Counted from the stretch's first letter, positions 5,208-64,000 are shown. The stretch is 64,000 bases of DNA from Candidatus Heimdallarchaeota archaeon (GCA_030668825.1 DAOVET010000005.1:1736-65735), one strand, 5' to 3'. The notes: generated by a model not told the origin, from the sequence alone. Program-made: numbers and translations.

Positions 5208-5316
5208 GCCTCAATGGTGTAGCTCGGCCAATCATTGCGGACTTTCACATGAGAAAGTCCGCGTGACTAAGCAGGAATATCCGCAGACCCGGGTTCAAAT
5301 CCCGGTTGAGGCACCA
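5208..5316 (+). tRNA. tRNA-Glu (anticodon TTC) with a ~31-nt intron in the anticodon loop region
   Basis: GCCTCAA...TTGAGGC acceptor. Archaeal Glu-type D-arm GGTGTAGCTCGGCCAATCAT. Anticodon stem GCGGA/TCCGC encloses CTTTCA[catgagaaagtccgcgtgactaagcaggaat]A, giving a CUUUCAA loop. T-arm CCGGGTTCAAATCCCGG, CCA encoded. Confidence 0.8.
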
Positions 5317-9472: not shown

Positions 9473-10768
9473 ATGAGTCCAAGTAATGTTTTTCTAGGAT
9501 ACGATCATGGCAAAGGCGATTTTCAAGAGTTAACAGATACAACTAAATATCAATCCATTATAGACGGGGATTTAACTGACATATCTAGACAGTTGTCTTC
9601 ATTAGGTTTAGACGGTCTTCTAATTTTCCATCATGAAAAGGAAGAATGGCATTTGGTTTTTGGTAGTCATCTAGGACTTATTGCTCAAAGAACAGGTCGA
9701 AGAATAGCTGATACAATTAGTAGATCAGGGTTCTTAATTTCATCAGGCGAGAGAACAGGCATAAAATGCCGTTTAGAACAAATCACTGAAGATAATATTG
9801 GTGATTTACATAAGACAGTGCAAGAGAAGTACATAGATACAGATCTTGGGGGTTTTCAGGGAGACTCTAGACAAGATTCTTTCCCTAAGAAAGTGTTTGC
9901 ACAAGATGTACCACCTGCTAAAGGTGTTTTCGAAGAAACTCCAAAGGTTCAAGATCAAAAACTACCACATCCTCAGGATATTTATGAGCCAAAACCTATC
10001 GTTGAACCAACACATGAGCCAGCAATTGAACCAATTGCTGAACCAGAGCCAGAACCAGAACCACAAACTGTAGTTTTTTCAGAACCTGAACCTGTTGTTA
10101 AACCACCAGCTAAAACTTCTGTTGAATCTGTTGTTGAACCTGTTGCTGAACCAGAACCAGCTGAGGAGGTTGTTGATGAACCTGAGGCTGAAATTATAAA
10201 AGCGGTTGAGGAAACAGTAAAAGATGTCGTTGAAGATGTCGTCGAGGAAGTTGTTGAACAAGTTGCTGAAGCTGTGGCTGAGGGTGTTGCTGCAGAAATA
10301 TCAGACGAACAAGTAGCTGGATTAGTGAAAGAAGCTATCGAAGAAAAAACCGATGAAATCGTAGACAAAGTAGTTGAAGAAGTTTCCGAGGAAGTACTAG
10401 AAGAAGTAACAGAAGAAATTGAAGAAGCTGTCGAAGAAGTACTCGATAAGGAAGAAACAATTGCTGAAGCTGTTGAGGAAATCGTCGAGGAAATCATCGA
10501 AGAAATTGTAGAGGAAGTCACTGAAGCTGTTGAAGACGTCGTCGAGGATGTCGTTGAAGATGTTGTTCAAGATGTTCTTGAAAAAGCAGAAGGTATAAGC
10601 GAAGAAAAAGCTGAACATATAGCTGAAGATGTCGTTGAAGATGTAGTTGAAAAGGTTGTAGACGAAGTTACTGAAGAAGCTGTAGAAGAAAGAGTAGATG
10701 AAATCGCTGAAGCCGTTGAAGACGCCGTAGAAGCAAAAATAGACGAAGAATCAGAAGATTCTAACTAA
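9473..10768 (+). CDS. Acidic low-complexity protein: globular N-domain, Pro/Glu linker (EPEPEPEP), then ~190-aa E/V-rich (VVEDVVEEVVE) repeat tail
   Basis: 431 aa. The N-terminal ~130 aa (…LSSLGLDGLLIFHHEKEEWHLVFGSHLG…) resemble a Roadblock/LC7-like fold pattern. The C-terminal half is >50% E+V+D+A with an imperfect tandem repeat. Confidence 0.6.
   Translation: MSPSNVFLGYDHGKGDFQELTDTTKYQSIIDGDLTDISRQLSSLGLDGLLIFHHEKEEWHLVFGSHLGLIAQRTGRRIADTISRSGFLISSGERTGIKCRLEQITEDNIGDLHKTVQEKYIDTDLGGFQGDSRQDSFPKKVFAQDVPPAKGVFEETPKVQDQKLPHPQDIYEPKPIVEPTHEPAIEPIAEPEPEPEPQTVVFSEPEPVVKPPAKTSVESVVEPVAEPEPAEEVVDEPEAEIIKAVEETVKDVVEDVVEEVVEQVAEAVAEGVAAEISDEQVAGLVKEAIEEKTDEIVDKVVEEVSEEVLEEVTEEIEEAVEEVLDKEETIAEAVEEIVEEIIEEIVEEVTEAVEDVVEDVVEDVVQDVLEKAEGISEEKAEHIAEDVVEDVVEKVVDEVTEEAVEERVDEIAEAVEDAVEAKIDEESEDSN
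10190..10740. repeat. Imperfect tandem coding repeats (gaagatgtcgtcgaggaagttgttgaa-type units) encoding the VEE-repeat tail
   Basis: Repeated gttgaagatgtcgt(c/t)ga(g/a)ga(a/t)gt units are visible. They generate spurious ORFs on the opposite strand (9982-10521, 10079-10261, 10397-10618). Confidence 0.6.
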
Positions 10769-10839
10769 TTCTATTCTCTTTTTTTATTTTATTTTTTCAT
10801 TTCAAAAGTCATTTATAGAGAAAGTAGACATTTTTCTTA

Positions 10840-11862
10840 ATGTCTAATCGAACATTAACTATTCTTGCAGGAGGCTATTCTAGAAGATTTCAGAAAAAGG
10901 ATGGTCAGTGGTTAGACAAAGCTTTGTTGTATATTAACAATGAACCTCTTTTGATACATCTTTTAGATCAAGGAAACGAAATATATGATGGTATCAATAT
11001 CTCTGTAAATTCAAATTCTAGAAAGCGCGATTATAAGGAGATTGTGGAGAGTTATTTACCAAATATCAATACAGATTTCACTGTCGATTTAAGAAAAATC
11101 TCTTTAGATGGCGTTCTAAAAGGAATTTATTCTACTCTTAAGAAAAGAGCAAAATCTTCAATTCAATTCATCCCTTCAGATCGTCCCTATCTCGACTTAA
11201 GAATTTTAAGAGGTTTAAAAGTTATGAAAAGGGGAGTAAGTTTGCTCAAGTATGATAATGGTATGATTGAGCCTTTACTTTCTCTATACGGAGCACAAGC
11301 ATCTTTTCCAGAGAGCTTTTCTCAACTTCCATTGTCAAGAGCAGATGTTCCAATTAGAATTTCTAATGAAATTCAAGTTTATAGTATAAATGAAATACTT
11401 GATAGAAATAATTTATCTTCCAAAATTTTTTCTAACATAAATATTCAACCTGATATTGAAAATGAAGGAATAGAACATTCTAATTCAGCTGCAGTTAATA
11501 TCCCCGATTCAGTAATAATTAAGAGAGAACAGCCAAATTTTACATCTGATGATACTAGATACAACAAGGAAGATGGAATTATTAAGACACTTATTGAAAT
11601 TGAGAATTATTACTCAGCTTTTCTTTCATCCTTGTATTTCTGGAAACAAAAGAAAATTTCTGTTGGGAAATACAAGGCACTTGGAATTGAATCGTTGAAA
11701 AAAGAATATGAATTTTGGATTAAGAATGAAATACCTTTTCTTGCTCTTCACTCTTTGGATGATCTTGTTGGATATTTTCCTAAAGAGAAAAAACCAAGTG
11801 TCAATGCTAAAATTGAACATTTAAGAAAAAAAATGAGGATTGAACCAAGAAGAATAAAATAA
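10840..11862 (+). CDS. MobA-like nucleotidyltransferase (molybdenum-cofactor guanylyltransferase-like) with an uncharacterised C-terminal extension
   Basis: N-terminus ILAGGYSRRF...DKALLYINNEPLLIHLL matches the MobA NTP_transf_3 signature (ILAGGxSxRM..DKALL..G.PLL). It sits next to a molybdopterin formate dehydrogenase. Confidence 0.6.
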   Translation: MSNRTLTILAGGYSRRFQKKDGQWLDKALLYINNEPLLIHLLDQGNEIYDGINISVNSNSRKRDYKEIVESYLPNINTDFTVDLRKISLDGVLKGIYSTLKKRAKSSIQFIPSDRPYLDLRILRGLKVMKRGVSLLKYDNGMIEPLLSLYGAQASFPESFSQLPLSRADVPIRISNEIQVYSINEILDRNNLSSKIFSNINIQPDIENEGIEHSNSAAVNIPDSVIIKREQPNFTSDDTRYNKEDGIIKTLIEIENYYSAFLSSLYFWKQKKISVGKYKALGIESLKKEYEFWIKNEIPFLALHSLDDLVGYFPKEKKPSVNAKIEHLRKKMRIEPRRIK

Positions 11863-46226: not shown

Positions 46227-47264
46227 TTAAATTTCTGGAAAATGACATGAAACGTAGTGATGTGGTTCTATTTCCTCTAATTCAGGAGTAACTTTCGAGC
46301 ATATCTCTTGAGCCTTGTAACATCTTGGGTGAAATGGGCATCCTGAAGGAGGATTAATTGGACTTGGAACATCGCCCTCAAGAATAATACGATCCATTTT
46401 AATACGAGGATCTGGACGAGGAATAGCTGAAAGCAAAGATACTGAATAGGGATGAGCTGTCTTACGGAACAATTCTCCTGTTGGACACATTTCCATGATT
46501 TTTCCTAGGTACATTACTGCTACTCTATCTGAAACATGTTTGATAACACTGAGATCATGTGCAATAAACATGAAAGTTAGATTGAAATCCTTTTGCAAGT
46601 CATGTAGAAGATTCAAGATTTGTGCCTGTACAGAGACATCGAGAGCTGAAACTGGTTCATCTAACAAAATTACTTCTGGATGAATTGCTAAAGCCCTTGC
46701 AATACCTAATCTTTGTCTTTGACCACCACTGAACTCGTGAGGATATCTTAAAGCATGGTAATCTTCTAATCCTACCTTTGCAAGAATTTCAAGGACTCTT
46801 GATTCTTTTTCTTCATAGAGCATATCTGGATAATGTATATCAAAAGGCTCTTTGATTAGATCAAGAACCATTCTCCTTGGATTCAAACTGGAATAAGGAT
46901 CTTGGAAAACCATCTGTAATTGACGTTTAACAGCTAGTTCTTCTTCACGAGACATAGGTTGGAAGATGTCTATTCCTTTGAAATAAACAGAACCCTCAGT
47001 AGGTTCTTCTAACTTGACAGTAACTCTAGCTGTTGTACTTTTACCACAGCCTGATTCACCAACTAGACCCAGAGTTTCACCTTTGTTAAGAAATAGGTTT
47101 ACACCATCAACAGCCTTAATATTTGCAACCACTCGAGAGAAAAGGATTGACTGTTGACTTACAGGAAACCATTTCTTTAGGTTATCAAGTGTTATAATGG
47201 GTTGTGTTTTTTGGTCCCAATTGGAGAAGAGATCGATTGTTTCATATTCTTTAAGTGTAGCCAT
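46227..47264 (-). CDS. oppF: Oligopeptide/dipeptide ABC transporter ATP-binding protein (OppF-type)
   Basis: [12 protein letters not shown] Walker A, FSGGQRQR signature, [11 protein letters not shown] Walker B, and a C-terminal oligopeptide-type extension with CxxC. Confidence 0.85.
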
Positions 47265-48302
47265 TTACGCTTCCTCCTTTACAGCTTTTTTACTCTCACG
47301 GAGAGCTTCCAAATCTATATGCAAATCTAGTTCCTCGAAATGATGACACGCAACACGACGACCCTTGCCGAACGTAAATTCAGGAGGTCGAACACGAGAA
47401 TAAATCTCAGTTGCATATTTGCATCTTGGATGGAAACGACATCCCTTTGGAGGATTAATTAATCTAGGTACATTACCGGGAATTGTTTCAAGACGTGTCT
47501 TGTCTTTTTCCAGAGATGGAATACTCTCAAAGAGTGCATATGTGTATGGATGTTTGGGATCAAGGAATATATCCTCTGTTAGTCCAGATTCAACTACACG
47601 ACCACCGTAAAAAATATGAACTCGTTTTGTAGTCTCTGCTACGACTCCAAGATTGTGAGTAATGAGCATCATAGCCAAACCTAACTTTTTTTGCATCTCT
47701 TTGATAATTTCAAGAACCTGTGCTTGAATTGTAACATCTAAAGCAGTTGTAGGTTCATCAGCAATCAAAAGACTGGGTTGAAGGGCAAGTGCTCTAGCTA
47801 TAAGAATTCTCTGACGCATTCCTCCACTAAATTGGTGAGGATAATCAGTAATACGTTTTTCAGCTTCGGGAATTCCTACTAGATCCAGAGTTTCAATAGC
47901 AATCTCTAAAGCTTCTTTCTTATTGCATTTTCTATGTAAAGCAATAACTTCAGTCATCTGATCAGATATTTTGAAGATTGGATTCAAGCTTGTCATAGGA
48001 TCTTGGAAAATCATAGCTATTTCTTTACCACGTATCCTTCTCATTTGAAGATCAGGTAATTCAAGAAGGTTAACACCCTTGTAAATAACATCACCAGCAA
48101 CAGTTTTACCATTTTTAGGTAAGATACGTAAAGTGGAATGAGCAGTGACTGTTTTGCCACAGCCTGATTCACCAACAATACCAACAGGTTCACCATAATT
48201 AACGTCGAAGGAAACACCATCTAAGGCTTCAACAACACCGCTCTCAGTATAGAAATATGTGTAAATATTTCGTAAATCTAGTATTTTTTTATCTTGTGCC
48301 AT
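47265..48302 (-). CDS. oppD: Oligopeptide/dipeptide ABC transporter ATP-binding protein (OppD-type)
   Basis: [13 protein letters not shown] Walker A, FSGGMRQR, LIADEPTTALD, and a C-terminal Opp extension. Confidence 0.85.
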   Translation of the reverse strand: MAQDKKILDLRNIYTYFYTESGVVEALDGVSFDVNYGEPVGIVGESGCGKTVTAHSTLRILPKNGKTVAGDVIYKGVNLLELPDLQMRRIRGKEIAMIFQDPMTSLNPIFKISDQMTEVIALHRKCNKKEALEIAIETLDLVGIPEAEKRITDYPHQFSGGMRQRILIARALALQPSLLIADEPTTALDVTIQAQVLEIIKEMQKKLGLAMMLITHNLGVVAETTKRVHIFYGGRVVESGLTEDIFLDPKHPYTYALFESIPSLEKDKTRLETIPGNVPRLINPPKGCRFHPRCKYATEIYSRVRPPEFTFGKGRRVACHHFEELDLHIDLEALRESKKAVKEEA

Positions 48303-48306
48303 TGTA

Positions 48307-49659
48307 TCACTCTCTTAATCTTGGATCTAGCGCATCTCTTAATGCGTCTCCTAGCAAGTTAAATGCCAGTACTACAAAGAATATTGCGAATCCTGGTAGA
48401 AGCGCCAATTCTGGATTCGTTTTCAGAACTGTTTGCGCTTCATTAACCATCTGCCCCCAAGAAATCGTCGTTGGACTCCCTAAACCTAAAAACGTCAATC
48501 CTGCTTCTGAGAGAATTCCTCCAGCAATGGATATTGTTGCAATAACAATGATGGGAGCTAAAATGTTCGGTAGTATATGGACTAAAATGATTCTCCGATT
48601 GCTCGCTCCTAATACTCTTGCAGCATTTACATAATCTAAGTTGTATATCTGCTTCGTGTTAGCCGTGACTAACCTACATAATCCTGCCCAACCAAATATT
48701 CCTAGTACAACAATAATAACTATTGATTGTGGTATTCGTCTCAAAAATACTAATCTTCCTCTTCTGATGAATGAAACTGCTAGAATTGCTATTACAAGAA
48801 ATGGTAGAGCAAGAAACATGTCTGTAATTCTCATAATAATTTCTTCAGTCCATCCTCTATAGTATCCAGCAAGGGCACCTAATGTCACCCCTATTAAAAC
48901 AGACATGACAGTTGAGAATAAACCTACAGTTAAGGATACTTCACTACCAGCGAGTAACCTTGAGAATTCATCTCTTCCAAGAATATCTGTTCCTCCAGGA
49001 TACTTTAGATTTGGATTAGCTAAAGAACCACCACCATTCCATGCATCAAATAGGGGAGTAGTTCCTACAGGGCTAAAAGGCATCAAGATTGGATAAACAA
49101 TTGCCAGAATTGTGATTCCAACTACGAGAGTAGCTGATAAGACTGCAACTTTATTTTTCCTATATCTTCTCCAAACAAGTGTCCATTGAGAAGGACTTCT
49201 TTCTCGAAGAGTTCCATCTTTTGCAATAATCATTTCTTTCTTACCAGTTACTTTCCTGTAATATCTCCAACCTATCTTTATTGAAATCCATACTGCTGCA
49301 ACTATGAATACATAGAGTAGATATGCAATCAGTGATTTGACTGGAAAATCACCAAAAGATCCTGTTGTAATGCCTGCCTCTGTTATGATGTTAATGAAAC
49401 CGTTACCCCAAGTATGCCATAAATAGCCACTTATTGGACCCAATTTAACATTTGTATATGATACTCCCATTAGCGGTAGTAACCCCCCTCCTATAAGGAA
49501 GATTGCTAGGAATTGTATGATATAGTTAAGGTAGTAGTGCTGCCAGAGCACAGCTAGTGCTCCCGCCCAAGACATAGATTTTGGTAATCTTTTTTTCACT
49601 AGGTAATTATCAAGTCTTGTAGAAAAAGACCCTTTTTGTGTTTTCTTAATTCTTTGCAA
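48307..49659 (-). CDS. oppC: Opp/Dpp-type ABC transporter permease (OppC-like) with N-terminal extension
   Basis: 450 aa. C-terminal BPD_transp_1 permease core (…LSEAGLTFLGLGSPTTISWGQMVNEA…) preceded by a ~150-aa TM-containing extension. Confidence 0.8.
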   Translation of the reverse strand: MQRIKKTQKGSFSTRLDNYLVKKRLPKSMSWAGALAVLWQHYYLNYIIQFLAIFLIGGGLLPLMGVSYTNVKLGPISGYLWHTWGNGFINIITEAGITTGSFGDFPVKSLIAYLLYVFIVAAVWISIKIGWRYYRKVTGKKEMIIAKDGTLRERSPSQWTLVWRRYRKNKVAVLSATLVVGITILAIVYPILMPFSPVGTTPLFDAWNGGGSLANPNLKYPGGTDILGRDEFSRLLAGSEVSLTVGLFSTVMSVLIGVTLGALAGYYRGWTEEIIMRITDMFLALPFLVIAILAVSFIRRGRLVFLRRIPQSIVIIVVLGIFGWAGLCRLVTANTKQIYNLDYVNAARVLGASNRRIILVHILPNILAPIIVIATISIAGGILSEAGLTFLGLGSPTTISWGQMVNEAQTVLKTNPELALLPGFAIFFVVLAFNLLGDALRDALDPRLRE

Positions 49660-49676
49660 CTCATATCACCTTTTTA

Positions 49677-52292
49677 TCATAGTTCTATACGCGGATCTAC
49701 CGCAACGTAAGCAATATCTGTTATCAAGTTACCTAGTAAGATAAGTAAAGTCAGAATCGCCGTCGTACCTAAGACCATTGGGAAGTCCAACAGAAGCACC
49801 GCACCTACATATTTGAATCCTAAACCCGGCCATGTGAAGAGTGTTTCAGTGATTGGGGCTCCAGCTAAAGCTGTAGCCATAAACAACCCAACATAGGTTA
49901 CTACAGGGATCAAAACATTTCTGAATGCATGTTTCCATGTAATGGTTCTTTCAGATAATCCATTTGCTCTTGCAGATAAGACATAATCTTGTCTAAGAAC
50001 TTCAAGCATTGTTGACCTAACTAATCTAGTATATAGGGCTAAGAAAGCAAATGTCAAAGTAATAGTTGGTAAAGCCATATGAAGGAGTGAATCCCCTAAT
50101 CTTACACCTACATTATTCCAAAATCCACCAATACCGCCCCACTGCCCTGACCAGAATAATTGCCAGTTCGTCTGACTAAATACAGGCGTCGGCGCGGGTA
50201 TTCGGTGAGCTTTTGCAGCTGGGAACCATCCTAAACCATATCCGCTGAATATATAAATCAATAATAAACCAAACACAAAAATTGGCATTGAGAGACCTAA
50301 GAGTGCGAAAGAACTAGCGGCTGAATCAATCCATGTGTTTTGATTCTTTGCTGCTAAAACACCCAAAGGTATCGAAATAAGCAAAGCTAGCGCAAATGAT
50401 GCTAACTGAAGCTTTAGAGTTTCCCAAATTAATCCACCAATCATATTATTAATTGATTGACCTGATTGGAAACTTATACCCATATCACCACGTATAAGGT
50501 TGTAGAACCAAGATACGAATTGAACATAAATGGGCTGATCTAAACCAAGTTTTTTAGTAAGATTTATTCTATCTTGTTCCGTTACTCTTTGTTTTCCAAG
50601 TAGTAACAAAGCAACTGGATCGCCCATTCCGCTTACCATTACAAAAGTCATCACACATATTGCAACGAAGAGCGGAATAAGTGTTAATAATCTACGAGTA
50701 ACGTAAGTAGTTAATCTTAATGATGCTATGTTTTTAATCCATCTAAGAACGCCAGTATCACCAATTCTTCTTGACATTTTGGAGCTGGTTGTTTGTTGCC
50801 AATTGACTGGTAGAAAGATACCAGTTACTATCATTAATATTCCAATAGTGAGTATGTAGAATCCTGGTCCAACTGAACCTGTTAAACCAATGTCAAAGTA
50901 AGCTGGTGTAGAATCATTCGGGTTAAACGTAATTGGCGCCGTTGAGGCTGCAGTTTGCCCCGTTACTAAAGCTTGGTATCTTTCCGCTGCTATAGCCATC
51001 GTTCGGTTCATTGATAAAACAGCAACAACCAGAGCCATAAGAAAAAGAATTCCTGCAGCAATATCTGCAACAGTACCCCTCGATTTAAAACCACCACTTT
51101 GGAAAACCTGACCCAAAACAGCAGCAGCTATGGCAAAGATTAGTATAAACCACAAAGCTGCAGCGAGAATAACAATACTACTGGGTATTTCAGCTTCCAA
51201 ATATCGTTCTTGAGTGAGGTTGTTTGCACTACTATAAGTTAACATTTTGTAATCAATTTTGAAACCGAAGATTCGTGCTAGTGTACCTGATGAATCGTAC
51301 TCAAACCTAGGTCTTACTCTAAAGATCTCTAAACCTACTCCTACAACATATGCATATCCGTCTTTTACGAATATTCCATTTATCTCTCCTGTAATCTCCT
51401 GCGAGCCTACAAGAGTTGGTTCTTCTGGATTTATAATTGAAACAATCTGTATTCCAACAGTCGAATCAACAATATATACATGTTCATTTTCAATATGTAT
51501 TCCATTGACATTTCCTTCAATATAATAAGAACTAGTGAGAACTGGAGATTGAGGATTAGTTATATTTACTACTTGTATGCCGATATTTGCACCAACAATG
51601 TAAGCATAATTTCCTAAAACAGCTACATCATATACTGGCTCGTTTACAGCAAAGGTTGCAACCAAGCTTGGTAAAGTTGCGTCAGTAATATTTAGAATAC
51701 GTAAACCAGTTACTGAATCCACAACATACGCGAATTCATCTTTTACAATTAAACTGTTTACTTCTCCTGAAATACTAAATACACCCTCTTGTGTTGGTGT
51801 TGTTGGATCACTAATATTTAGTATTTGAAACCCTATTGTTGAATCTACAACATAAGAATGATTACCTGATACAAACACATCATTAGCGCCACCTGTAATA
51901 CTATATGTACCAACTTGTGTTGGTGTAGTGGGGTCAGTAATATTAACAATCTGTAATCCCGTGACCGTATCTGCAATGTAAGCATAGTTATCCTTCACGA
52001 ATATACCATTGGCCCCATTTGCAATATTGTATGTCCCAATAATCTCTGGTGTTGTTGGATCAGTTACATTTACAATATTTAGCCCTGTATCTGAATCTAC
52101 TACAAATGCTAGATTATTTTCATAATATACATTATGGAGGACTCCTGTAATGTTCTGAGAACCAACAAAAATAATCGGTTCAGGTTCAATTGTTGTTGAA
52201 TCAAATGTAATTGAATATATAGGTGCCCAAGCAGAAGTAAGAACAAGTAGAAAACCAACAATCTTTAAAGAAACTGCTACACTTTTATCCAT
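49677..52292 (-). CDS. Fusion protein: signal peptide + LVIVD-repeat beta-propeller ectodomain + OppB-type ABC permease
   Basis: 871 aa. Residues ~30-330 hold six or more tandem ~43-aa repeats (…YAYVVDSxTGLxIVNITDPTTPxxVGTYxIxGxANGIFV…), the LVIVD-repeat pattern. The C-terminal ~350 aa form an OppB/DppB permease core (…LASFALALLISIPLGVLAAKNQNTWIDS…). Confidence 0.7.
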   Translation of the reverse strand: MDKSVAVSLKIVGFLLVLTSAWAPIYSITFDSTTIEPEPIIFVGSQNITGVLHNVYYENNLAFVVDSDTGLNIVNVTDPTTPEIIGTYNIANGANGIFVKDNYAYIADTVTGLQIVNITDPTTPTQVGTYSITGGANDVFVSGNHSYVVDSTIGFQILNISDPTTPTQEGVFSISGEVNSLIVKDEFAYVVDSVTGLRILNITDATLPSLVATFAVNEPVYDVAVLGNYAYIVGANIGIQVVNITNPQSPVLTSSYYIEGNVNGIHIENEHVYIVDSTVGIQIVSIINPEEPTLVGSQEITGEINGIFVKDGYAYVVGVGLEIFRVRPRFEYDSSGTLARIFGFKIDYKMLTYSSANNLTQERYLEAEIPSSIVILAAALWFILIFAIAAAVLGQVFQSGGFKSRGTVADIAAGILFLMALVVAVLSMNRTMAIAAERYQALVTGQTAASTAPITFNPNDSTPAYFDIGLTGSVGPGFYILTIGILMIVTGIFLPVNWQQTTSSKMSRRIGDTGVLRWIKNIASLRLTTYVTRRLLTLIPLFVAICVMTFVMVSGMGDPVALLLLGKQRVTEQDRINLTKKLGLDQPIYVQFVSWFYNLIRGDMGISFQSGQSINNMIGGLIWETLKLQLASFALALLISIPLGVLAAKNQNTWIDSAASSFALLGLSMPIFVFGLLLIYIFSGYGLGWFPAAKAHRIPAPTPVFSQTNWQLFWSGQWGGIGGFWNNVGVRLGDSLLHMALPTITLTFAFLALYTRLVRSTMLEVLRQDYVLSARANGLSERTITWKHAFRNVLIPVVTYVGLFMATALAGAPITETLFTWPGLGFKYVGAVLLLDFPMVLGTTAILTLLILLGNLITDIAYVAVDPRIEL

Positions 52293-55516: not shown

Positions 55517-55616
55517 TCCATTTTTATTGAAGTTCTAAACTTTTACTCTTGTTCTAAAAACTTCCTATTCAAAAAATTGATAAAGATGCACATAAGTTGC
55601 TTTTTAACGAAACCCA

Positions 55617-56210
55617 ATGACTAACTTCATTCAGAATCTAAAAAGTTCTCTTCGAAGAAAACTAGGCTACCCAGAAGTATCTATACTAGTTTTGGGCGAT
55701 AATACTCCTGCAACTAGAAACAGAACTCTACTAATGAGGTCTAATACATCTCTCTCAGAATTCATAATAGATAGTTCTCTAACTGAATTACCATATTCTT
55801 TAGGGTTCAAATTCAAACATAAGCAATTTGTTCCATTTGAAGGGTTGTTATATCTTATTGATGCAACCAAAGAAGAAATGATAAAACACGAAAGAAACTA
55901 TTTCTGGGAAAAGATAGCTTGGGATTCTGAAACAAAAAATCTTCCAATTGCGATCTGTGCATATAACTCAAATCTCCAAGGTGCTTTGTCTCGTGGGGAG
56001 CTAATTGAGAATCTCTCTCTCATTCGTCTTACTGATAGACTATGGAATCTTTTTGACATACCCGATATCTCTTCTCAACTTGAAGCTCTAAAATGGTTGA
56101 AGAGAGTAATCTACATCGGACACATTAAGTCTTGGGAAGAAAAAGAAAAGTTATTAGAAAAAATCAAACCTGTGCAAGTTCAATTTGCTACAGAAGAAGA
56201 AAATAATTAA
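55617..56210 (+). CDS. Hypothetical protein, first gene of the MoxR-vWA operon (possible degenerate small-GTPase-like fold)
   Basis: 197 aa. SILVLGDNTPATRNRTLL (P-loop-like position without Lys) and LYLIDATKEE (DxxG-like). Assignment is speculative. Confidence 0.4.
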   Translation: MTNFIQNLKSSLRRKLGYPEVSILVLGDNTPATRNRTLLMRSNTSLSEFIIDSSLTELPYSLGFKFKHKQFVPFEGLLYLIDATKEEMIKHERNYFWEKIAWDSETKNLPIAICAYNSNLQGALSRGELIENLSLIRLTDRLWNLFDIPDISSQLEALKWLKRVIYIGHIKSWEEKEKLLEKIKPVQVQFATEEENN

Positions 56211-56236
56211 AATATATAATAAAAAAGGTAAAACTC

Positions 56237-57787
56237 ATGACACTCACAATACAGAAATTAATGAAGGATGGTTATGACGGATTTTCTGTTAGATCAATCC
56301 TTATGAATCCTGAATTCCGTGAAAGAGTTTCAAAAGACGTCAGCGTTAGAGGAAATGATGTTGGTAAGAATCTGGTAATGGATAAACTAGCTGTAGGTGG
56401 AAAAGTTCTACTTACTGGTCCAACAGGAGAAGCTAAATCATTGTTTGCTAGAATTTTGCTAGATCATATTGTTAGAGAAATTAATAATTCCAAATACCAT
56501 ATTGAAGGATGTCCATTCTTAGAGGATGCCGGATATATTGTGGATGTGATGAACAATTTCCCAGCTAATCCCTTTGCAGGAATTCGTGTTATGCAATCTC
56601 TCTGTCCATATTGTAGAAAGAATATTGAAACCATACTTTCAACAGATGACAACACCGTCGATTTAGATAGTACAAATAGTATGTTAGCAATTCCTCCAAA
56701 GGAAGTAGTTAGTCGTTTAGGAAAACTTGGAGCTACTAAAACTATAGTTAGAAGATCTCAATTAGATCCTAGGACCGATCCTGAAAGCTTATCCATGCTT
56801 CTTGCTGGTGTTGAGAATTTAGAAGAATTGTTTGGAAAAGAAACCTCAACTACATATGCTGCAACTTCACACAAAGTAGGAATATTATCACATGGTTTCA
56901 TTGTAGTTAATGAAATACAAAGGCTTCCATTAAGCCTGCTAGAATCTTTGATGGGTTTTCTTGAGGAACCGATGGTAATCAAATACAATATTCAAGGAGA
57001 GCCTGTTTATATTGATGGCGCAGTTCTTTTCACCTCGAATGCTCCTTTGACAGTATTTGGAGAAGAAAGTCAACCAATCATTAATCGTATTCCAGAAGTT
57101 CTCTGGCCCGCTCGTTCTGTGGAAAGCAGAGAACAAATCATTAAAGATATGTTTGATGAACAAATTGTTCTTTCTCGAAGAAAAATTACTGCTAACCCCT
57201 CCATTATTCAACTCCATGAATTAGAAAAAGAGACAACTGATTTCGTAAGTCGATTAGCAGTTGATTTTCTAGCTTTCTTAGGTAACAATTCCCTACCTGA
57301 TAATCTCAAAACAAAAGGTGTTCGTTCTGAGAGTAGAATGGCTAGAGCTGATTTCTATACTGGTTTAGATGAAATTCACGACCCTCAAAGAAACCCACAT
57401 ATTGATCTTCGTACAATGAATAACATCATTGGAGAAACAGTATTACTTCAAGCAAGAGAAGATGAAACAACCGATATTAACGTCATTACATTAGAAAGAA
57501 TAAGGAATACAATGAATGCTTATGATGTTCCGGTTTCAATGATTAACGATGCACTACAGCAACTTAAGATTGTTTTACGTACATCTATCAAAGAATCAGA
57601 CGTATCAATTAGTGTTAAAGATATTTCCGAAGACATATCTAAAATGAAAGCATTAAGTGATACCGAATTAGCTGAACTTGTAGTGAAATTTGAAGGTTTA
57701 GACAAATACAAAGAAAACATTCGAAAGCAAGTTGTGGAAAAACTAAAACCATCATATGAACTGTTACTCAGAGTAGATTATATCTAA
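56237..57787 (+). CDS. ChlI/MoxR-type AAA+ ATPase with inserted CxxC zinc ribbon and long C-terminal helical domain
   Basis: 516 aa. VLLTGPTGEAKS (Walker A), a CPF…CPYCRK insert, GFIVVNEIQRLPLSLLESLMGFLEE (Walker B region with DE replaced by NE), and VLFTSNAPL (sensor-1, ATxNP-like). Confidence 0.65.
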   Translation: MTLTIQKLMKDGYDGFSVRSILMNPEFRERVSKDVSVRGNDVGKNLVMDKLAVGGKVLLTGPTGEAKSLFARILLDHIVREINNSKYHIEGCPFLEDAGYIVDVMNNFPANPFAGIRVMQSLCPYCRKNIETILSTDDNTVDLDSTNSMLAIPPKEVVSRLGKLGATKTIVRRSQLDPRTDPESLSMLLAGVENLEELFGKETSTTYAATSHKVGILSHGFIVVNEIQRLPLSLLESLMGFLEEPMVIKYNIQGEPVYIDGAVLFTSNAPLTVFGEESQPIINRIPEVLWPARSVESREQIIKDMFDEQIVLSRRKITANPSIIQLHELEKETTDFVSRLAVDFLAFLGNNSLPDNLKTKGVRSESRMARADFYTGLDEIHDPQRNPHIDLRTMNNIIGETVLLQAREDETTDINVITLERIRNTMNAYDVPVSMINDALQQLKIVLRTSIKESDVSISVKDISEDISKMKALSDTELAELVVKFEGLDKYKENIRKQVVEKLKPSYELLLRVDYI

Positions 57788-57824
57788 TCGCAAAACCCTC
57801 CTAGTAACTTTTAGAGATGATAAA

Positions 57825-59210
57825 ATGCCCCATCGAATATATTTCGTAACAGAAGCAGAATTTGCTGACCCCTTGCAGCATTATTCTAATCAAGAATTTG
57901 TATTAGAATTCGAGGATGCAGCACAAGTACTACGCTTATGGAGGAATCCGCATCTTGGAAGAAGTTCTCGTGAAGGCGCAGTCTTATCTATTGCAGCGAA
58001 AAATGCTGTTGCCGTAGACAATATTGTTCAGAAAATTATGAACACTTTTCTAACAGCTGAAGAAGAAGAACGTTTAGTTAATGAAATGAAACTCCTTCGG
58101 TTCATTGGAGAACGAATTTTACCCGATGTCCTGGAGAGAGTTAACCGAAACGAGTTACAGACTGTTGAGGATATTCTCAAATATATTCAAGATCTTTTAA
58201 AAGAACTTAAACAAGAAGGAACTGTAGATCTTCAACAATTAGCAGAGAAATTAAGTCAATTAACTGAAATTGTGGATATAGAAATAACTGACGCATTTGG
58301 TAGGAAAAAAAGAATTTCTCGGGAAAGTGTTATGGATCTTCTTGGAAAGATTTTAGGTAGATATCTAATGAAACAGATTTCTGTAGCACCCGTTGATGAA
58401 GTTCAAAAAAGATTACACGGTACAATTCGTTTGAAAGAGACCTACAAGAGTGCTATTCTTAGTTCTCAAACTATCCCTCCAACAGAAGTCAAACAAGAAG
58501 ATATTATGAGGATAAAGAAGGATCGTCGTTCTTTAGTTTATCTGATAGTTGATATGAGTCAATCCATGAAAAAAACTGTTTTTGAGGGAAAAATGTCCAG
58601 ATTGGATGGAGCTCTTTTAACAAGTCTTAGTCTCTATTATTATTTCAAAATGATTAATAGAAGAAAAAGAAAGCGATTTGATATGTTTAAGCTAGCAGTT
58701 GTTCCTATAATTAAAAACCCCTTTGTGGTTGATGATGATAAGAAAATGGAGAAACTTCTTCTCACTGCTGAAGCGAGAGGAAAGACACATATGGTTCAGA
58801 GCATCCTGAAAGCTATTGAACATGCAAAGAAACAGCATACAGACAAAGATATTGATGTTCAATTAACTATAGTAACAGATGGTATGCCTAATGTTCCTGT
58901 TTATCCATTTAGTTTCAAGAAAAATCGAGAACTTAAGAAATACTTCGATGAGGTTGAAACAAAAACAAATGCAGATACAAGAGAATGTTTGCAACAATTA
59001 AATGCAATATTCAGCTCTTTAAAGGCTGATCGTTCTAGGAATTGGAATATTTCTTACTTCTTAATGGGAACTGAGGTTCTAAGGAACAAAGAGATCTATA
59101 TCCATACAAAAAGAATGCTCAAAGGAATTACCAAGCCCATCTTAATAGATCCAGCTCAAATAAAGAATTTGGGTGAGCAAATACTACGGGAGAGTATACT
59201 TCATGCTTAA
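57825..59210 (+). CDS. von Willebrand factor A (vWA) domain protein with MIDAS motif, partner of the AAA+ ATPase
   Basis: 461 aa. LVYLIVDMSQSM (DxSxS MIDAS), …TAEARGKTHM…, and LTIVTDGMPN (T…D MIDAS completion). Long N-terminal helical region. Confidence 0.65.
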   Translation: MPHRIYFVTEAEFADPLQHYSNQEFVLEFEDAAQVLRLWRNPHLGRSSREGAVLSIAAKNAVAVDNIVQKIMNTFLTAEEEERLVNEMKLLRFIGERILPDVLERVNRNELQTVEDILKYIQDLLKELKQEGTVDLQQLAEKLSQLTEIVDIEITDAFGRKKRISRESVMDLLGKILGRYLMKQISVAPVDEVQKRLHGTIRLKETYKSAILSSQTIPPTEVKQEDIMRIKKDRRSLVYLIVDMSQSMKKTVFEGKMSRLDGALLTSLSLYYYFKMINRRKRKRFDMFKLAVVPIIKNPFVVDDDKKMEKLLLTAEARGKTHMVQSILKAIEHAKKQHTDKDIDVQLTIVTDGMPNVPVYPFSFKKNRELKKYFDEVETKTNADTRECLQQLNAIFSSLKADRSRNWNISYFLMGTEVLRNKEIYIHTKRMLKGITKPILIDPAQIKNLGEQILRESILHA

Positions 59211-60777
59211 AGAGGAACTTAGTGACGTAATCAAAGTTTACAACAATGCTAGAGAGGACTTCAAAACTCTGGTTGGAGAAACACCTGAGAATTATAGAAT
59301 ATTAATTTTCATTAATCCTGAGATGCATATTTCTGTTAATAGAGTTGTAGAGGTAACAGGAACTCCACAAGCTATACTCACTTCTGAACAAATTACAAAC
59401 CTTCGGTCAGCTAGGATTAGCGATTTCCTTCCAACTGGAAAGGAGACCGTCTATAACTCTTTACCAACTCTTGTTTATCTTTCTGTTCCTCCAAAAGAAC
59501 TTACTAAAGAACAAGAATTAACTCTAAGAGTTATGTTGATACATGCATTTGCTCATGCTTATTTGAATGAAAAAACTGAGTCTAATTCACCAAGGATTTT
59601 AGCACAATTATACCAATTAGATTTAGTTCTAAAAGAGTTAATGACAAACAATGTATTTCAATTGAACCAAACTTCACAAAATAAACATGTTTGGGCTTGG
59701 CAATACTTCCAAGATTTGATAGGCGTAATTCGATTATTTACAGAAGCAGGAGTAGAAGATTTCTATACTCCTCCAGAAGATGCTAGGAAATATACTCTTT
59801 TCAATAATTTTTCAATAGAAGCAATTAATCTGATAAATGAAAGGGCTAAGGTTGTAAGAAAGAAGAATCTCCATGAACTTATAGGTGAGGGCTTTGCACA
59901 TTACATTCAGAAAAAAGCAATTGATTATTTACTTGAGAAGGATGAGTATAAGCTTCCAAAAAGACACGACGATAAAACAATTATGTATCCTAAAGAATTG
60001 AAAGCTTTCCTTGCACCCCCTATAGGTGAATTTAGTCTTGCTGCTATGAATAAACTTGTAGCGAAGTACACTGATGAGAAAATAGTATTTCAGAAGCTTT
60101 TCTCATTTAAGTCTGATTTAGAATTCCTTGAAGAGTTTTCATGGAACGATATTAAGGATTTACAAGCTGTTAACAAAAACGCTCATTCTGAGTTTGTAGT
60201 TGAACATTGGCACTCTTCCAGAAGTAGATGGACAGATATATGGTCTGTTTATGCATATGGCTGGAGACAAATTGAAGAATACGTAAGTAAGGTGTTTAGA
60301 AGAAAATATTCCACCTTTGGGCAACTACTTGATGATAATCCTAGAATTTCCTCAAAAGGATATGTAAAAGTGGATGATAAGAAGGTATATGTGTTTGAAG
60401 CTAACGAGTACGGTGTAGGAATTGATCAGTTAGTCATTTTACATAATCATATGGCTTTGTATAGAGACGATTTCAAAACAATTCTCCCAGCTTTTGCAGA
60501 TATTATTGTTTTCAAGAAAATAGGGGGAATTCATGTTGCAACCTTATTTGCAGTTCATAAAGCAAAGTACAAATCTTTGTCTCCATATAACCTTCCTGTA
60601 GTTACAAGAGCTGTTCAAGTTACAAAAAGGAAGGATGCTTACAAGTTTGATTTAGACGAAGAAAAGGAAGAAAGGTTTGAAGTTAGAAAAATAGATTATA
60701 CATTTCTTAGAAAGCTAACTCAACCACAAAGAGGTGCTATAAGTTATCTCATTAAAGAGGGGTTGTTTGAATTATGA
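59173..60777 (+). CDS. Large hypothetical protein of the MoxR-vWA operon (alternative coupled start at 59203, ATGCTTAA overlap)
   Basis: 534 aa, no recognisable motifs. Its start overlaps the vWA stop and its stop overlaps the next start (ATGA). Confidence 0.5.
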   Translation: MSKYYGRVYFMLKEELSDVIKVYNNAREDFKTLVGETPENYRILIFINPEMHISVNRVVEVTGTPQAILTSEQITNLRSARISDFLPTGKETVYNSLPTLVYLSVPPKELTKEQELTLRVMLIHAFAHAYLNEKTESNSPRILAQLYQLDLVLKELMTNNVFQLNQTSQNKHVWAWQYFQDLIGVIRLFTEAGVEDFYTPPEDARKYTLFNNFSIEAINLINERAKVVRKKNLHELIGEGFAHYIQKKAIDYLLEKDEYKLPKRHDDKTIMYPKELKAFLAPPIGEFSLAAMNKLVAKYTDEKIVFQKLFSFKSDLEFLEEFSWNDIKDLQAVNKNAHSEFVVEHWHSSRSRWTDIWSVYAYGWRQIEEYVSKVFRRKYSTFGQLLDDNPRISSKGYVKVDDKKVYVFEANEYGVGIDQLVILHNHMALYRDDFKTILPAFADIIVFKKIGGIHVATLFAVHKAKYKSLSPYNLPVVTRAVQVTKRKDAYKFDLDEEKEERFEVRKIDYTFLRKLTQPQRGAISYLIKEGLFEL

Positions 60778-61547
60778 GTCTAGTAAATTTCTTTAGAGGA
60801 TTATTCATAGGTAGAAAACAAAAAAGCTACGATCCCTTAGATCGAGCTAATTTTGCTTTATTCTTACAGAAGAATGGTAAAGCAAAGAGTATCAACAAAA
60901 TTTATCCACTAATAGAAGATTCTGACTGGAATGTAAGAAATGCTGCAGCTTCAACCATAGTTGAATATGCTTCAAAATTTCCAGAGCTTAAAGAGAAAAT
61001 CCTAAGCTATCTTCATGATCTTATAGAACGAAGCTCATTGGCTATTAAACTATCTACTTTGGAAGTTTTAGGTCATTTAAAGGATTATGCGTCCAAACCT
61101 TATTTAGTAAAAATACTAGAAGAAAGTGATTATGATCTTCAGTATGCAGCAATTAGAGCAATAGGTTACTTACAAGATGTTGACGTTCTTTATCCATTGA
61201 AAAATGTAGTTTATGCAAAGGACTACATTACAAGAAGAGCTGCTATCCTTTCTGTAGTAAGAATAGCTGATTCAGTTAAAGAGGAAGAGCAATCAGATAA
61301 ACTAACTCCTCATATTCATATCTTAATTGAATCATACCTAGAATTAGAGCAAGTCGGTGAAATAATTTGCAAAGTTATGGATTATGGTAACCAAAGTGAA
61401 TTTCCAGATATGAAAGGCTATACTGAATCTGAAATCGTAAAACTGGAAGGATTAATCGAACAGAAGGATTATAGTGTTGAAATGTACCAAAATTTTGCTC
61501 GTCTTATATTTCCTATTTACTTTCCCCTGCAGGAAGAAAACAACTGA
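60774..61547 (+). CDS. HEAT/PBS-lyase-type repeat protein
   Basis: 257 aa. Repeated DxxVRxAAxxALG-like units (DWNVRNAAASTIVEYA; DYDLQYAAIRAIGYLQD; DYITRRAAILSVVRIAD). Confidence 0.6.
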   Translation: MSLVNFFRGLFIGRKQKSYDPLDRANFALFLQKNGKAKSINKIYPLIEDSDWNVRNAAASTIVEYASKFPELKEKILSYLHDLIERSSLAIKLSTLEVLGHLKDYASKPYLVKILEESDYDLQYAAIRAIGYLQDVDVLYPLKNVVYAKDYITRRAAILSVVRIADSVKEEEQSDKLTPHIHILIESYLELEQVGEIICKVMDYGNQSEFPDMKGYTESEIVKLEGLIEQKDYSVEMYQNFARLIFPIYFPLQEENN

Positions 61548-62108: not shown

Positions 62109-62316
62109 ATACCTAGAATCGAGATTTCACTTCTTTATATGATGTATTACACAGCTGTTACATTTGTACTGCTTGTTAGAACAAAACTTACATAACTTGA
62201 TCAAGGTAATAATTCAGAAACTAAAAGTTAGTATCTCTCTTTTCCTAGTTTTTAAAATGAAATCTTTCTGACTGATAAACATACTTTTTAACGATTAAAA
62301 GATAGGGGAAACAAGA

Positions 62317-64000
62317 ATGCCATTAGATTTAGAAACACCTCTCACTCCAAAGGGAGATCAACCTAAAGCAATAGCTCAATTGATTGAAGGAATAAACAAA
62401 GGGCATAAACATCAAACACTTCTAGGTGTTACTGGCTCTGGAAAAACTTTTACCATGGCTTCTATTATTGATAAAATCAAGAAACCTACTTTGATTATGG
62501 GTCCCAATAAAACTCTTGTTGCACAGCTTTTTGGTGAATTTAAAACCTTGTTTCCTTCTGCAGCAGTGTGTTATTATGTCAGTTTTTATGATTACTATCA
62601 ACCAGAAGCCTATCTCCCTTCTAAAGATCTTTACATTGAGAAGGATGTTGATATAAATCGCGAAATTGAGCGTTTACGTCATACAGCTCTTGAAGCTTTA
62701 GCTACTCGTGACGATGTAATTGTTTGTGCAACTGTTTCTTGTATTTATGGCACTGGTCCTCCTGATGTATATCGTTCTAGAAGAATAGCTTTGAAAGTAG
62801 GTGATACTTTAGATAGGCAGGATTTGATGTTAGAGTTAGTCAAAAACCAATACGAAAGGAATGATGTGATTCTGGATCGTAAAACCTTCAGAGTTAGAGG
62901 TGATTCTATTGATATTTTTCCTTTATATAGCGATTATGTTTATCGTATTGAGTTCTTTGGAGACGAGATAGAACGTTTAACTTCTCGACATTCAGTTACA
63001 GGAGAAATGATGAAAGAATATGAAGCAATGTCAATTTATCCGGGAACCCAATACCTTGCAAATGATGCTTTCTTTGAATCAGCTCTTGAAGACATAAAGA
63101 TGGAATTAGATATGCGTTTAGCTGAGTTTGAAAAGGATGACAAAGTAGTAGAGAGACATCGATTGAGGCAAAAAACACTATATGATTTGGAATTATTAAG
63201 AGAAACAGGTGGCTGCTCTGGAATAGAAAACTACTCTCGTCATTTTGATAGAAGAAAACCCAGTGAAAAACCTTTTGCTTTGCTTGACCACTTCCCTGAA
63301 GATTTCTTGTTTTTTATTGATGAATCCCATCTAACCATCCCCCAACTTCGTGGAATGTATGGTGGAGATTACTCAAGAAAAAAGAATCTAATTGATCATG
63401 GTTTCAGACTTCCTTCTGCATTTGATAATCGTCCTTTCAGATTCGAAGAAACGGAGAAATATATGCACACTGTTGTTTTCACAAGTGCCACTCCTCGAGA
63501 TTATGAATATGATGTATCTGAGCAAATTGTAGAACAAATCATTCGTCCAACTGGTCTTGTAGATCCAAAGATAGACGTAAGAGGGACTGATGGACAAATA
63601 ACTGATCTTGTTAGTGAGATAAACCAAAGAGTAAGTAAGGGAGAAAGAGTCTTGGTTACAACTATCACCAAAAAGAGTGCAGAGATGTTATCTGACTATC
63701 TTCTAGAAATGAATATTAAGTCGGTTTATTTACATCATGAGGTAGACACTTTAGACCGAATTGAGATATTAAGAGAACTTAGATTAGGCAAACATGATGT
63801 GGTTGTCGGAATAAACCTTCTAAGAGAAGGATTGGATCTTCCTGAAGTAGCTCTTGTTGCAATACTTGATGCAGATAAAGAAGGATTTTTACGTTCTAAA
63901 GGTTCGCTAATTCAACTTATGGGTCGAGCTAGCAGAAACGTTCATGGTAGCGTTATTTTGTATGCTGATAATCTTACAGATTCTATGAAAAACGCTATAA
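62317..64000 (+). CDS. uvrB: Excinuclease ABC subunit B (UvrB), N-terminal ~560 aa; continues beyond window
   Basis: MPLDLETPLTPKGDQPKAIAQLIEGI…LLGVTGSGKTFTMA (Walker A)…YYVSFYDYYQPEAY…, helicase motifs, …LLREGLDLPEV…. No stop before position 64000. Confidence 0.9.
   Translation, partial: MPLDLETPLTPKGDQPKAIAQLIEGINKGHKHQTLLGVTGSGKTFTMASIIDKIKKPTLIMGPNKTLVAQLFGEFKTLFPSAAVCYYVSFYDYYQPEAYLPSKDLYIEKDVDINREIERLRHTALEALATRDDVIVCATVSCIYGTGPPDVYRSRRIALKVGDTLDRQDLMLELVKNQYERNDVILDRKTFRVRGDSIDIFPLYSDYVYRIEFFGDEIERLTSRHSVTGEMMKEYEAMSIYPGTQYLANDAFFESALEDIKMELDMRLAEFEKDDKVVERHRLRQKTLYDLELLRETGGCSGIENYSRHFDRRKPSEKPFALLDHFPEDFLFFIDESHLTIPQLRGMYGGDYSRKKNLIDHGFRLPSAFDNRPFRFEETEKYMHTVVFTSATPRDYEYDVSEQIVEQIIRPTGLVDPKIDVRGTDGQITDLVSEINQRVSKGERVLVTTITKKSAEMLSDYLLEMNIKSVYLHHEVDTLDRIEILRELRLGKHDVVVGINLLREGLDLPEVALVAILDADKEGFLRSKGSLIQLMGRASRNVHGSVILYADNLTDSMKNAI

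Follow-up and report, generated by a model that had tools for sequence, protein, structure and literature searches.

A conserved five-gene unit of Heimdallarchaeia pairs a divergent AAA+ ATPase and a vWA-MIDAS protein with an Arf-family pseudo-GTPase, a zincin-like protein and a HEAT-repeat protein

We analysed a stretch of 64,000 nucleotides (nt) from Candidatus Heimdallarchaeota archaeon (GCA_030668825.1 DAOVET010000005.1:1736-65735), hereafter the window, in which five adjacent genes, called g1 to g5 here, occupy positions 55617-61547. The G+C content of the window is about 34%, and its genes are closest to those of Heimdallarchaeaceae (Asgard) metagenome-assembled genomes (MAGs). All five genes are on the plus strand (+), as is every feature described for them below. 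g1 (55617-56210, 197 amino acids) encodes an Arf-family protein that appears to be a pseudo-GTPase; g2 (56237-57787, 516 amino acids) a divergent AAA+ ATPase; g3 (57825-59210, 461 amino acids) a protein whose N-terminal domain is followed, at the C-terminus, by a von Willebrand factor A (vWA) domain with a complete metal ion-dependent adhesion site (MIDAS); g4 an orphan protein; and g5 (60774-61547, 257 amino acids) a repeat protein of the PBS-HEAT type. None of the five window proteins has a predicted transmembrane segment.

An earlier note on this DNA had described the genes as an operon with gaps of 26 and 37 nt and two start/stop overlaps, and this arrangement can be read directly in the sequence. 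The spacing is 26 nt between g1 and g2 and 37 nt between g2 and g3. g3 and g4 overlap in ATGCTTAA at 59203-59210, and g4 and g5 in ATGA at 60774-60777, where the start of g5 lies over the stop of g4. The single spacing above 40 nt is an AT-rich intergenic stretch of 100 nt immediately 5' of g1 (55517-55616), which separates it from a divergent NUDIX hydrolase gene and is presumed to be the promoter region of the operon. Two starts can be proposed for g4, an ATG (59203-60777, 524 amino acids) and a GTG (59173-60777, 534 amino acids). Since the g4 orthologues begin at the ATG, the 524-residue product is the likelier one. The surroundings consist of ordinary chromosomal genes (an Opp-type ABC transporter, an acyltransferase and a pyridoxal phosphate (PLP) enzyme), with the NUDIX gene upstream of the unit and two small convergent open reading frames (ORFs) and uvrB downstream.

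The five genes form a conserved, translationally tight unit. Their order is shared by dozens of Heimdallarchaeia species. Synteny was counted in those genome loci that are long enough to show all genes; in these, tblastn found g1 to g5 in one order and orientation at g2 identities between 98% and 50%, whereas the flanking genes change and the PLP and NUDIX genes are retained in close relatives only. Upon ORF clustering of 19 diverse loci, g2-g3-g4-g5 were contiguous in all of them and g1 stood directly 5' of g2 in 15, so that the claim of one unit with conserved synteny is borne out; no sixth gene or client gene was conserved across clades in this clustering. In Hodarchaeales-type genomes g3-g4-g5 are still contiguous, and g2 either lies next to them in divergent orientation (locus L060) or is separated from them by about 40 genes within one contig (L056 and L057).

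Some neighbours of the unit are clade-specific. Kariarchaeaceae-type loci (for example L029, 3515-4852) carry a ParB/sulfiredoxin-like gene (DGHHR) and a gene for an FKBP-type membrane protein whose tail is rich in Cys. In the clade of locus L042 a gene of 133 amino acids, Roadblock/LC7-like by eye, directly follows g5 (L042, 13507-13908). CbbQ-CbbO are AAA+/vWA activases of RuBisCO, and in L060, and in no other locus, a RuBisCO large-subunit-like gene (10458-11825, minus strand) lies about 0.9 kb 3' of the g2 homologue; this adjacency is probably a coincidence.

All five genes, including those for the two presumed pseudo-enzymes, are under strong purifying selection: against close relatives, the ratio of nonsynonymous to synonymous substitution rates (dN/dS) ranged from 0.02 to 0.21, with 0.08-0.21 for g1 and 0.02-0.14 for g3, g4 and g5.

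With g2 as the query, 105 clusters of homologous proteins were retrieved, nearly all annotated as 'hypothetical'; no homologue of g2 or g4 bears a functional annotation. The named clusters all came from Heimdallarchaeia or from bins labelled Asgard/Promethearchaeota, apart from a few obvious mislabels, and a second search, based on a profile, again retrieved this family, sharply bounded and without an outgroup. When prokaryotic species were scanned, each represented by one genome, 55 loci came up, with one locus in each complete genome. Two of these loci, L018 and L046, are labelled Thorarchaeota and Bathyarchaeia, respectively; the g2 of L018 is 86% identical to that of the window, the flanking genes of L046 are common to Heimdallarchaeota-labelled loci, and both are likely mislabelled MAGs. 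No copy of the module was found in a viral contig collection. The best reading of these sequence comparisons is that the module is vertically inherited and known so far from Heimdallarchaeia alone.

Conservation in g2 was assessed on 19 orthologues. The Walker A motif GPTGEAKS (residues 61-68, nt 56417-56440) is invariant as GPTGEAK[ST], and the Walker B motif VVNE (N225-E226, within nt 56894-56926) is likewise invariant, with Asn always in the place of Asp. Sensor 1, FTSN (residues 265-268, nt 57029-57040), a candidate arginine finger, R284 in INRIPE (nt 57077-57097), and a candidate sensor 2, R392 in DLRT (nt 57401-57415), are common to all 19. A C-terminal helical region of about 200 residues completes the protein. 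The general features of AAA+ proteins (Walker A, Walker B, sensor 1, and the arginine-finger and sensor-2 positions) are thus present, including the three that the earlier note had listed, and judged by these motifs g2 carries the residues for ATP binding and hydrolysis.

Behind the Walker A helix, g2 has an insert of about 80 residues, whose Cys-bearing core (56510-56614) runs from C92 (in CPFLEDAGY) to C123-x-x-C126, and the three cysteines are at least 90% conserved. In one orthologue, P0058 (locus L032, 8001-9539), all three are replaced by Ser. This joint loss suggests that C92, C123 and C126 belong to one site, probably a metal site, and also suggests that the site is dispensable in the P0058 lineage. 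The insert had been called a zinc ribbon. Its CxxC is present and there is a weak Pfam match to Zn_ribbon_HMPTM (E 0.009), but in the AlphaFold2 (AF2) model the insert is mostly helical (predicted local distance difference test, pLDDT, about 80-93) and the conserved cysteines number three.

The family position of g2 is less clear-cut. In Pfam, AAA_5 matched 18 of the 19 members, Sigma54_activat 17, AAA_22 14 and Mg_chelatase four, all at E values of 1e-5 or worse, the best AAA_5 value being 4e-4. Matches to AAA+ folds included a weak similarity to BchI, and a sequence-profile search of the PDB gave nothing past the P-loop. As to the pre-sensor-1 beta-hairpin and helix-2 insert of the AAA+ clade 7 topology, the residues from Walker B to sensor 1, IKYNIQGEPVYIDG, would suit a hairpin and resemble their Sigma54_activat counterpart, but their pLDDT in the AF2 model is below 50. 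These matches point weakly to a divergent AAA+ protein from the neighbourhood of the sigma54 activators, AAA_5 and ChlI. We call g2 a divergent AAA+ ATPase rather than a MoxR protein because the Pfam, PDB-profile and RavA comparisons were either weak or confined to the P-loop.

g3 starts 37 nt after g2, and in those Heimdallarchaeales loci that extend far enough the two genes are likewise neighbours. The MIDAS of g3 is complete, as the earlier note had stated: D243-x-S245-x-S247 (nt 58548-58568), T321 (nt 58779-58787) and D352 (nt 58872-58883) are invariant in 19 orthologues, and the site is also kept in a Hodarchaeales-type orthologue (LDMSDSM, GAT and VTDG). Pfam matched VWA_2 in 16 of the 19 (best E 5.3e-5), VWA in six and VWA_CoxE in four, over about residues 238-353; the window g3 by itself scores under the Pfam cut-off for vWA. 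In the PDB profile search there was a marginal match to the vWA domain of TRAP (E 0.005) over the region from G-T to TDG. The N-terminal domain of about 230 residues is conserved. It opens with an invariant MPHR and contains the motif WRNP.LGRSSREG, and no AAA match was found in it. The protein ends with the vWA domain and has no variable C-terminal effector. An hhalign comparison of the g3 profile with ViaA gave no useful alignment.

For g4, no family was found at the sequence level, either in Pfam (with 19 orthologues included) or in the PDB profile search. An exhaustive HMMER search with a g4 profile against 1.84 billion representative proteins gave 21 hits and no relatives outside the family; two distant full-length matches were looked up, and both came from Hodarchaeota- or Promethearchaeota-labelled MAGs. 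The AF2 model (pLDDT 80.6, predicted template modelling score 0.82) has a mostly helical N-terminal part with a zincin-like fold. On the long helix that follows the N-terminal sheet lies HAFAH (nt 59542-59556), a degenerate form of HExxH in which Glu is replaced by Ala wherever the motif is kept; the His residues themselves are lost in Kariarchaeaceae-type and Hodarchaeales-type members. Because Foldseek found no match to the model in the PDB, the fold call is of moderate strength, and to that degree g4 may be said to keep a zincin-like fold without its chemistry. The description of this gene as a 534-residue protein with no motif therefore has to be corrected.

The residues most strictly conserved in g4 are Q409, L413, N415, H416, D433 and R469. 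They belong to a C-terminal alpha/beta domain (residues about 380-475, nt about 60340-60630), for which no fold or family match was found and which might form a pocket for binding or catalysis that has gone unrecognised.

The assignment of g5 as a HEAT-repeat protein was confirmed by Pfam (HEAT_2, 5e-15) and by PDB profile matches to alphaRep/HEAT proteins down to 1e-37. Weaker matches include Adaptin_N and the AP-1/AP-2 beta subunits, with adaptin alignments that span single HEAT repeats, and the bilin-lyase-type HEAT proteins CpcE and NblB, which are generic repeat matches. The N-terminus of g5, MSLVNFFRGLFIGRKQK (nt 60774-60824), is basic-hydrophobic. All g5 orthologues have such N-termini, with predicted transmembrane segments in their place in Hodarchaeales, where the proteins are 390-424 residues long and begin with hydrophobic segments (KD19 of 2.23 in L057).

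The earlier note had guessed that the first gene might encode a degenerate GTPase, and our analysis was able to name the family. g1 scored 24 bits against the Pfam Arf model, whose cut-off is 22.3, and Arf was matched in 14 of 18 orthologues. The g1 profile matched Arf1 in the PDB at 4.5e-11, and also Arl1 and Arf6, aligned solely at profile positions 64-164. The homology, which extends to Arf, Arl and Sar and in this resembles the Arf-family GTPases including the Asgard Arfs, is thus confined to the C-terminal half of the G domain, where the Arf-like sequence LSLIRLTDRLWNLF (nt 56013-56054) is retained. By these matches g1 is an Arf-family protein. Unlike the Arf-family GTPases, it lacks the P-loop, NKxD and the switch II DxxG. 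The P-loop position (G1) reads LGDNTPATRNRT (nt 55683-55727), the G1-equivalent positions being LGDNTPATRNR; no DxxG (G3) is recognisable; and the NKxD position (G4) reads YNSN (nt 55959-55982). All three motifs are missing in 18 of 18 orthologues, and g1 is therefore taken to be a pseudo-GTPase. In every case its gene accompanies the AAA+ module, and it occurs in Heimdallarchaeales only. The Asgard Arf literature that we checked contains no mention of it.

In the MoxR-vWA pairs NorQ-NorD, CbbQ-CbbO, RavA-ViaA and CoxD-CoxE, too, an AAA+ gene directly adjoins one whose product has an N-terminal domain followed by a vWA domain with a complete MIDAS, and the two genes are tightly coupled. The weak family matches of g2 and g3 include AAA_5 and VWA_CoxE. 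The engine of the module is in this sense of a known kind, and by analogy it likely has the same mode of action. The differences are considerable. g2 has an N-E Walker B motif, an insert of about 80 residues with three cysteines and a C-terminal extension of about 200 residues, stays under the AAA_5 and AAA_3 thresholds and aligns with RavA at the P-loop only. The module adds an Arf-family pseudo-GTPase, a zincin-like protein and a HEAT-repeat protein, which have no counterparts in those pairs; it has no client gene beside it and is limited to one archaeal class. What stood of the earlier comparison with MoxR-vWA systems is the AAA+ gene beside a vWA-MIDAS gene, but not the membership of g2 in MoxR. 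The accessory genes do lie outside the classical partner sets, as had been remarked.

We consider it somewhat probable that g1 to g5 make up one soluble, ATP-driven protein-remodelling or assembly machine, specific to Heimdallarchaeia and vertically inherited. In NorQ-NorD structures a finger of the vWA domain enters the AAA+ pore, and ATP hydrolysis strains a linker of the vWA protein, which drives metal insertion into the client (PMC13036017). By analogy with NorQ/NorD, CbbQ/CbbO and RavA/ViaA, g2 would form a ring, on which g3 would dock by means of either the vWA domain or the conserved N-terminal one. The MIDAS metal of g3 might grip an acidic residue of the client or hand over a metal, and ATP hydrolysis would pull or twist g3 as an adaptor so that the client is remodelled. 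g4 and g5, a translationally coupled pair that echoes the zincin and helical-repeat combination of M1 aminopeptidases but lacks the catalysis, may serve as a client- or peptide-binding receptor and scaffold, and g1 as a nucleotide-free structural or regulatory subunit that was added in Heimdallarchaeales. The predicted membrane anchor on the g5 of Hodarchaeales suggests that the machine would work on or close to the membrane.

Several observations weigh against a machine of this kind. The Asn of the g2 Walker B motif, in the place of Asp, might weaken Mg2+ binding. In the AF2 model of g2 it is the ATPase core itself that is poorly predicted (pLDDT below 50 from Walker B to sensor 1), so that ring formation and pore loops are putative. 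The window g2 scored 15.7 bits against AAA_5 (PF07728), for which the cut-off is 22; AAA_3 (PF07726) matched none of the 19 members; and an hhalign comparison of the g2 profile with Escherichia coli RavA covered 23 columns around Walker A at a probability of 35%. By these comparisons the membership of g2 in the MoxR family is not demonstrated. In the 19 diverse loci no conserved neighbouring gene indicates a client. The N-terminus of g5, when examined as an amphipathic helix, had a hydrophobic moment that was not above background.

In a bolder version of the same reading, the module might be a core cellular invention of Heimdallarchaeia, a five-subunit AAA+/MIDAS machine in which an Arf-derived pseudo-GTPase and a membrane-associated HEAT scaffold were co-opted for the assembly or remodelling of membrane-proximal complexes. 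We put this forward tentatively and hold it to be doubtful. If it is true, g1 would be the first Arf-fold protein to act as a nucleotide-free subunit of an AAA+ machine.

Other explanations of the locus were weighed against the remodelling machine. The module could be an ATP-dependent system that chelates or inserts metals, as ChlI/ChlD/ChlH and CobS/CobT/CobN do, with g2 as the motor, g3 as the MIDAS subunit and g4 as a new substrate-binding subunit in the place of ChlH or CobN, acting on a tetrapyrrole or a metalloenzyme. The class I chelatases do share the motor architecture, an AAA+ protein with a MIDAS-vWA subunit, and the weak Mg_chelatase matches in four of the 19 g2 members and the BchI similarity agree with this, as do the weak matches of g5 to CpcE and NblB and the conserved His, Asn and Asp in the C-terminal domain of g4. 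However, no large subunit like CobN or ChlH is encoded in the window or in related loci, where the earlier note's statement that there is no CobN/BchH-type gene and no conserved RuBisCO or nitric oxide reductase context also holds. g3 lacks the AAA-like N-terminal half of ChlD, no NCBIfam chelatase model was matched, tetrapyrrole genes are not nearby in the window, and the HEAT matches of g5 are generic. We regard a chelatase as unlikely.

A trafficking or coat-like machine, either a precursor of or parallel to the eukaryotic Arf/adaptor systems or midasin, with g1 and g5 recruiting the motor to membranes or to a large ribonucleoprotein, is suggested chiefly by the partners. g1 is an Arf-family subunit; g5 is a HEAT subunit that weakly matches Adaptin_N and the AP-1/AP-2 beta subunits and, in Hodarchaeales, has a predicted membrane anchor; and the g5 N-terminus MSLVNFFRGLFIGRKQK is similar in composition to the N-terminal amphipathic helix of Arf1, which we take to be GNIFANLFKGLFGKK. 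AAA_5 is the dynein/midasin-type family, and Midasin/Rea1 likewise combines an AAA_5-like ATPase with a MIDAS domain, here found in the archaeal lineage that is the closest known relative of eukaryotes. Yet a GTP switch is not to be expected from g1, which has neither P-loop nor NKxD. Each adaptin match takes in a single HEAT repeat, the g5 N-terminus has a hydrophobic moment no higher than background, and the PDB matches of the g3 vWA domain are of the TRAP type, with midasin entries not among them. No specific homology to Midasin/Rea1 was detectable, and g2 has one AAA+ module only. The very large searches with g2 and g4 gave no homologue outside Heimdallarchaeia, and hence no descendant in eukaryotes. 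We therefore hold this explanation to be quite unlikely.

The earlier note had also drawn a comparison with conflict systems. A conflict or defence system of the ternary vWA-MoxR type (VMAP-like or iSTAND-like), with g1 or g4 as an inactive sensor or adaptor, would account for an AAA+ gene followed by a vWA gene and for extra components that resemble inactive NTPases and peptidases. This recalls the iSTAND and peptidase-bearing VMAP systems, in which an AAA+/vWA core is joined by dedicated extras, including derivatives of NTPases or peptidases that are inactive (Kaur et al. 2020, PMC7159879), and PADLOC gave weak matches of g5 to HEAT-ARM and WGR models. VMAP systems are described as having the order VMAP-MoxR-vWA, variable effectors on the vWA protein, rapid evolution and frequent paralogous copies (PMC7159879). 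The module has the order g1-AAA-vWA-g4-g5, lacks a variable C-terminal effector on g3, evolves slowly (as the dN/dS values of g3, g4 and g5 show), occurs at a single locus per complete genome and has no recognised VMAP-like architecture; its synteny and divergence look vertical across the whole archaeal class, its flanks are housekeeping genes, and no viral copies were seen. Apart from the generic HEAT matches, PADLOC returned a weak TRIP13 P-loop match and nothing specific. The comparison thus fails on dN/dS and on the defining features of VMAP systems, and we find a conflict system very improbable.

It is also very unlikely that g4 is an active atypical metallopeptidase in an AAA+-coupled protease working by the logic of FtsH, Lon or the proteasome. 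Its zincin-like fold, with two His four residues apart on the equivalent helix in many members and a conserved Glu (E123) nearby, would fit such a role, but no peptidase family was matched by sequence, the catalytic Glu is Ala in the members that keep HExxH, and both His are missing in the Kariarchaeaceae-type and Hodarchaeales-type orthologues, so that zinc binding does not appear to be a feature of the g4 family. M1 aminopeptidases consist of a thermolysin-like catalytic domain and a C-terminal ARM/HEAT-like domain. The g4-g5 pair resembles them in combining a zincin-like domain with a helical repeat, in two chains and without catalysis, but differs in the degenerate or absent HExxH, in the lack of sequence similarity, in the extra C-terminal alpha/beta domain of g4 and in having the helical-repeat part as a separate PBS-HEAT-type protein, g5. 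A gas-vesicle system of the GvpN type was rejected, as gvp genes are not nearby.

Elsewhere in the window, other features were observed. A minus-strand gene at 49677-52292 encodes an unusual fusion of 871 residues, in which an LVIVD-repeat beta-propeller (PF08309, 2e-34) is N-terminal to an Opp/Dpp-type ABC permease domain; it lies inside an opp-like cluster (46227-52292). The UvrB-like excinuclease gene (62300-64000, plus strand) runs past the end of the window, so that only its N-terminal part is present. A tRNA of 106 nt at 5208-5313 (plus strand) was matched by Rfam at 47 bits and missed by ARAGORN, and it probably carries an archaeal intron.

To return to the remodelling machine, the earlier note's view of an undescribed system agrees with our searches. 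NCBIfam has no family for g1-g4, no characterised system or defence model fits the set, and a description of the module was not found in the Heimdall/Asgard literature. As far as the database and literature searches reach, what is new is the accessory set, the isolated g2 and g4 families, the restriction to Heimdallarchaeia and the use of an Arf-fold pseudo-GTPase. A known engine is thus joined to three partners not previously seen with such engines.

Among archaea, Heimdallarchaeia are at present placed nearest to the eukaryotes, and to our knowledge almost none of their lineage-specific genes has a known function. The five-gene unit is complete, compact, strongly conserved and clonable in one piece. 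If the module is one more dedicated maturation factor for a metalloenzyme, the result would be a useful annotation and no surprise. If a complex and its client are identified, they would reveal the role of a class-wide machine, provide a new case in which pseudo-enzymes fit MoxR-like motors to specific clients, and document an early use of the Arf fold in Asgard archaea as something other than a switch.

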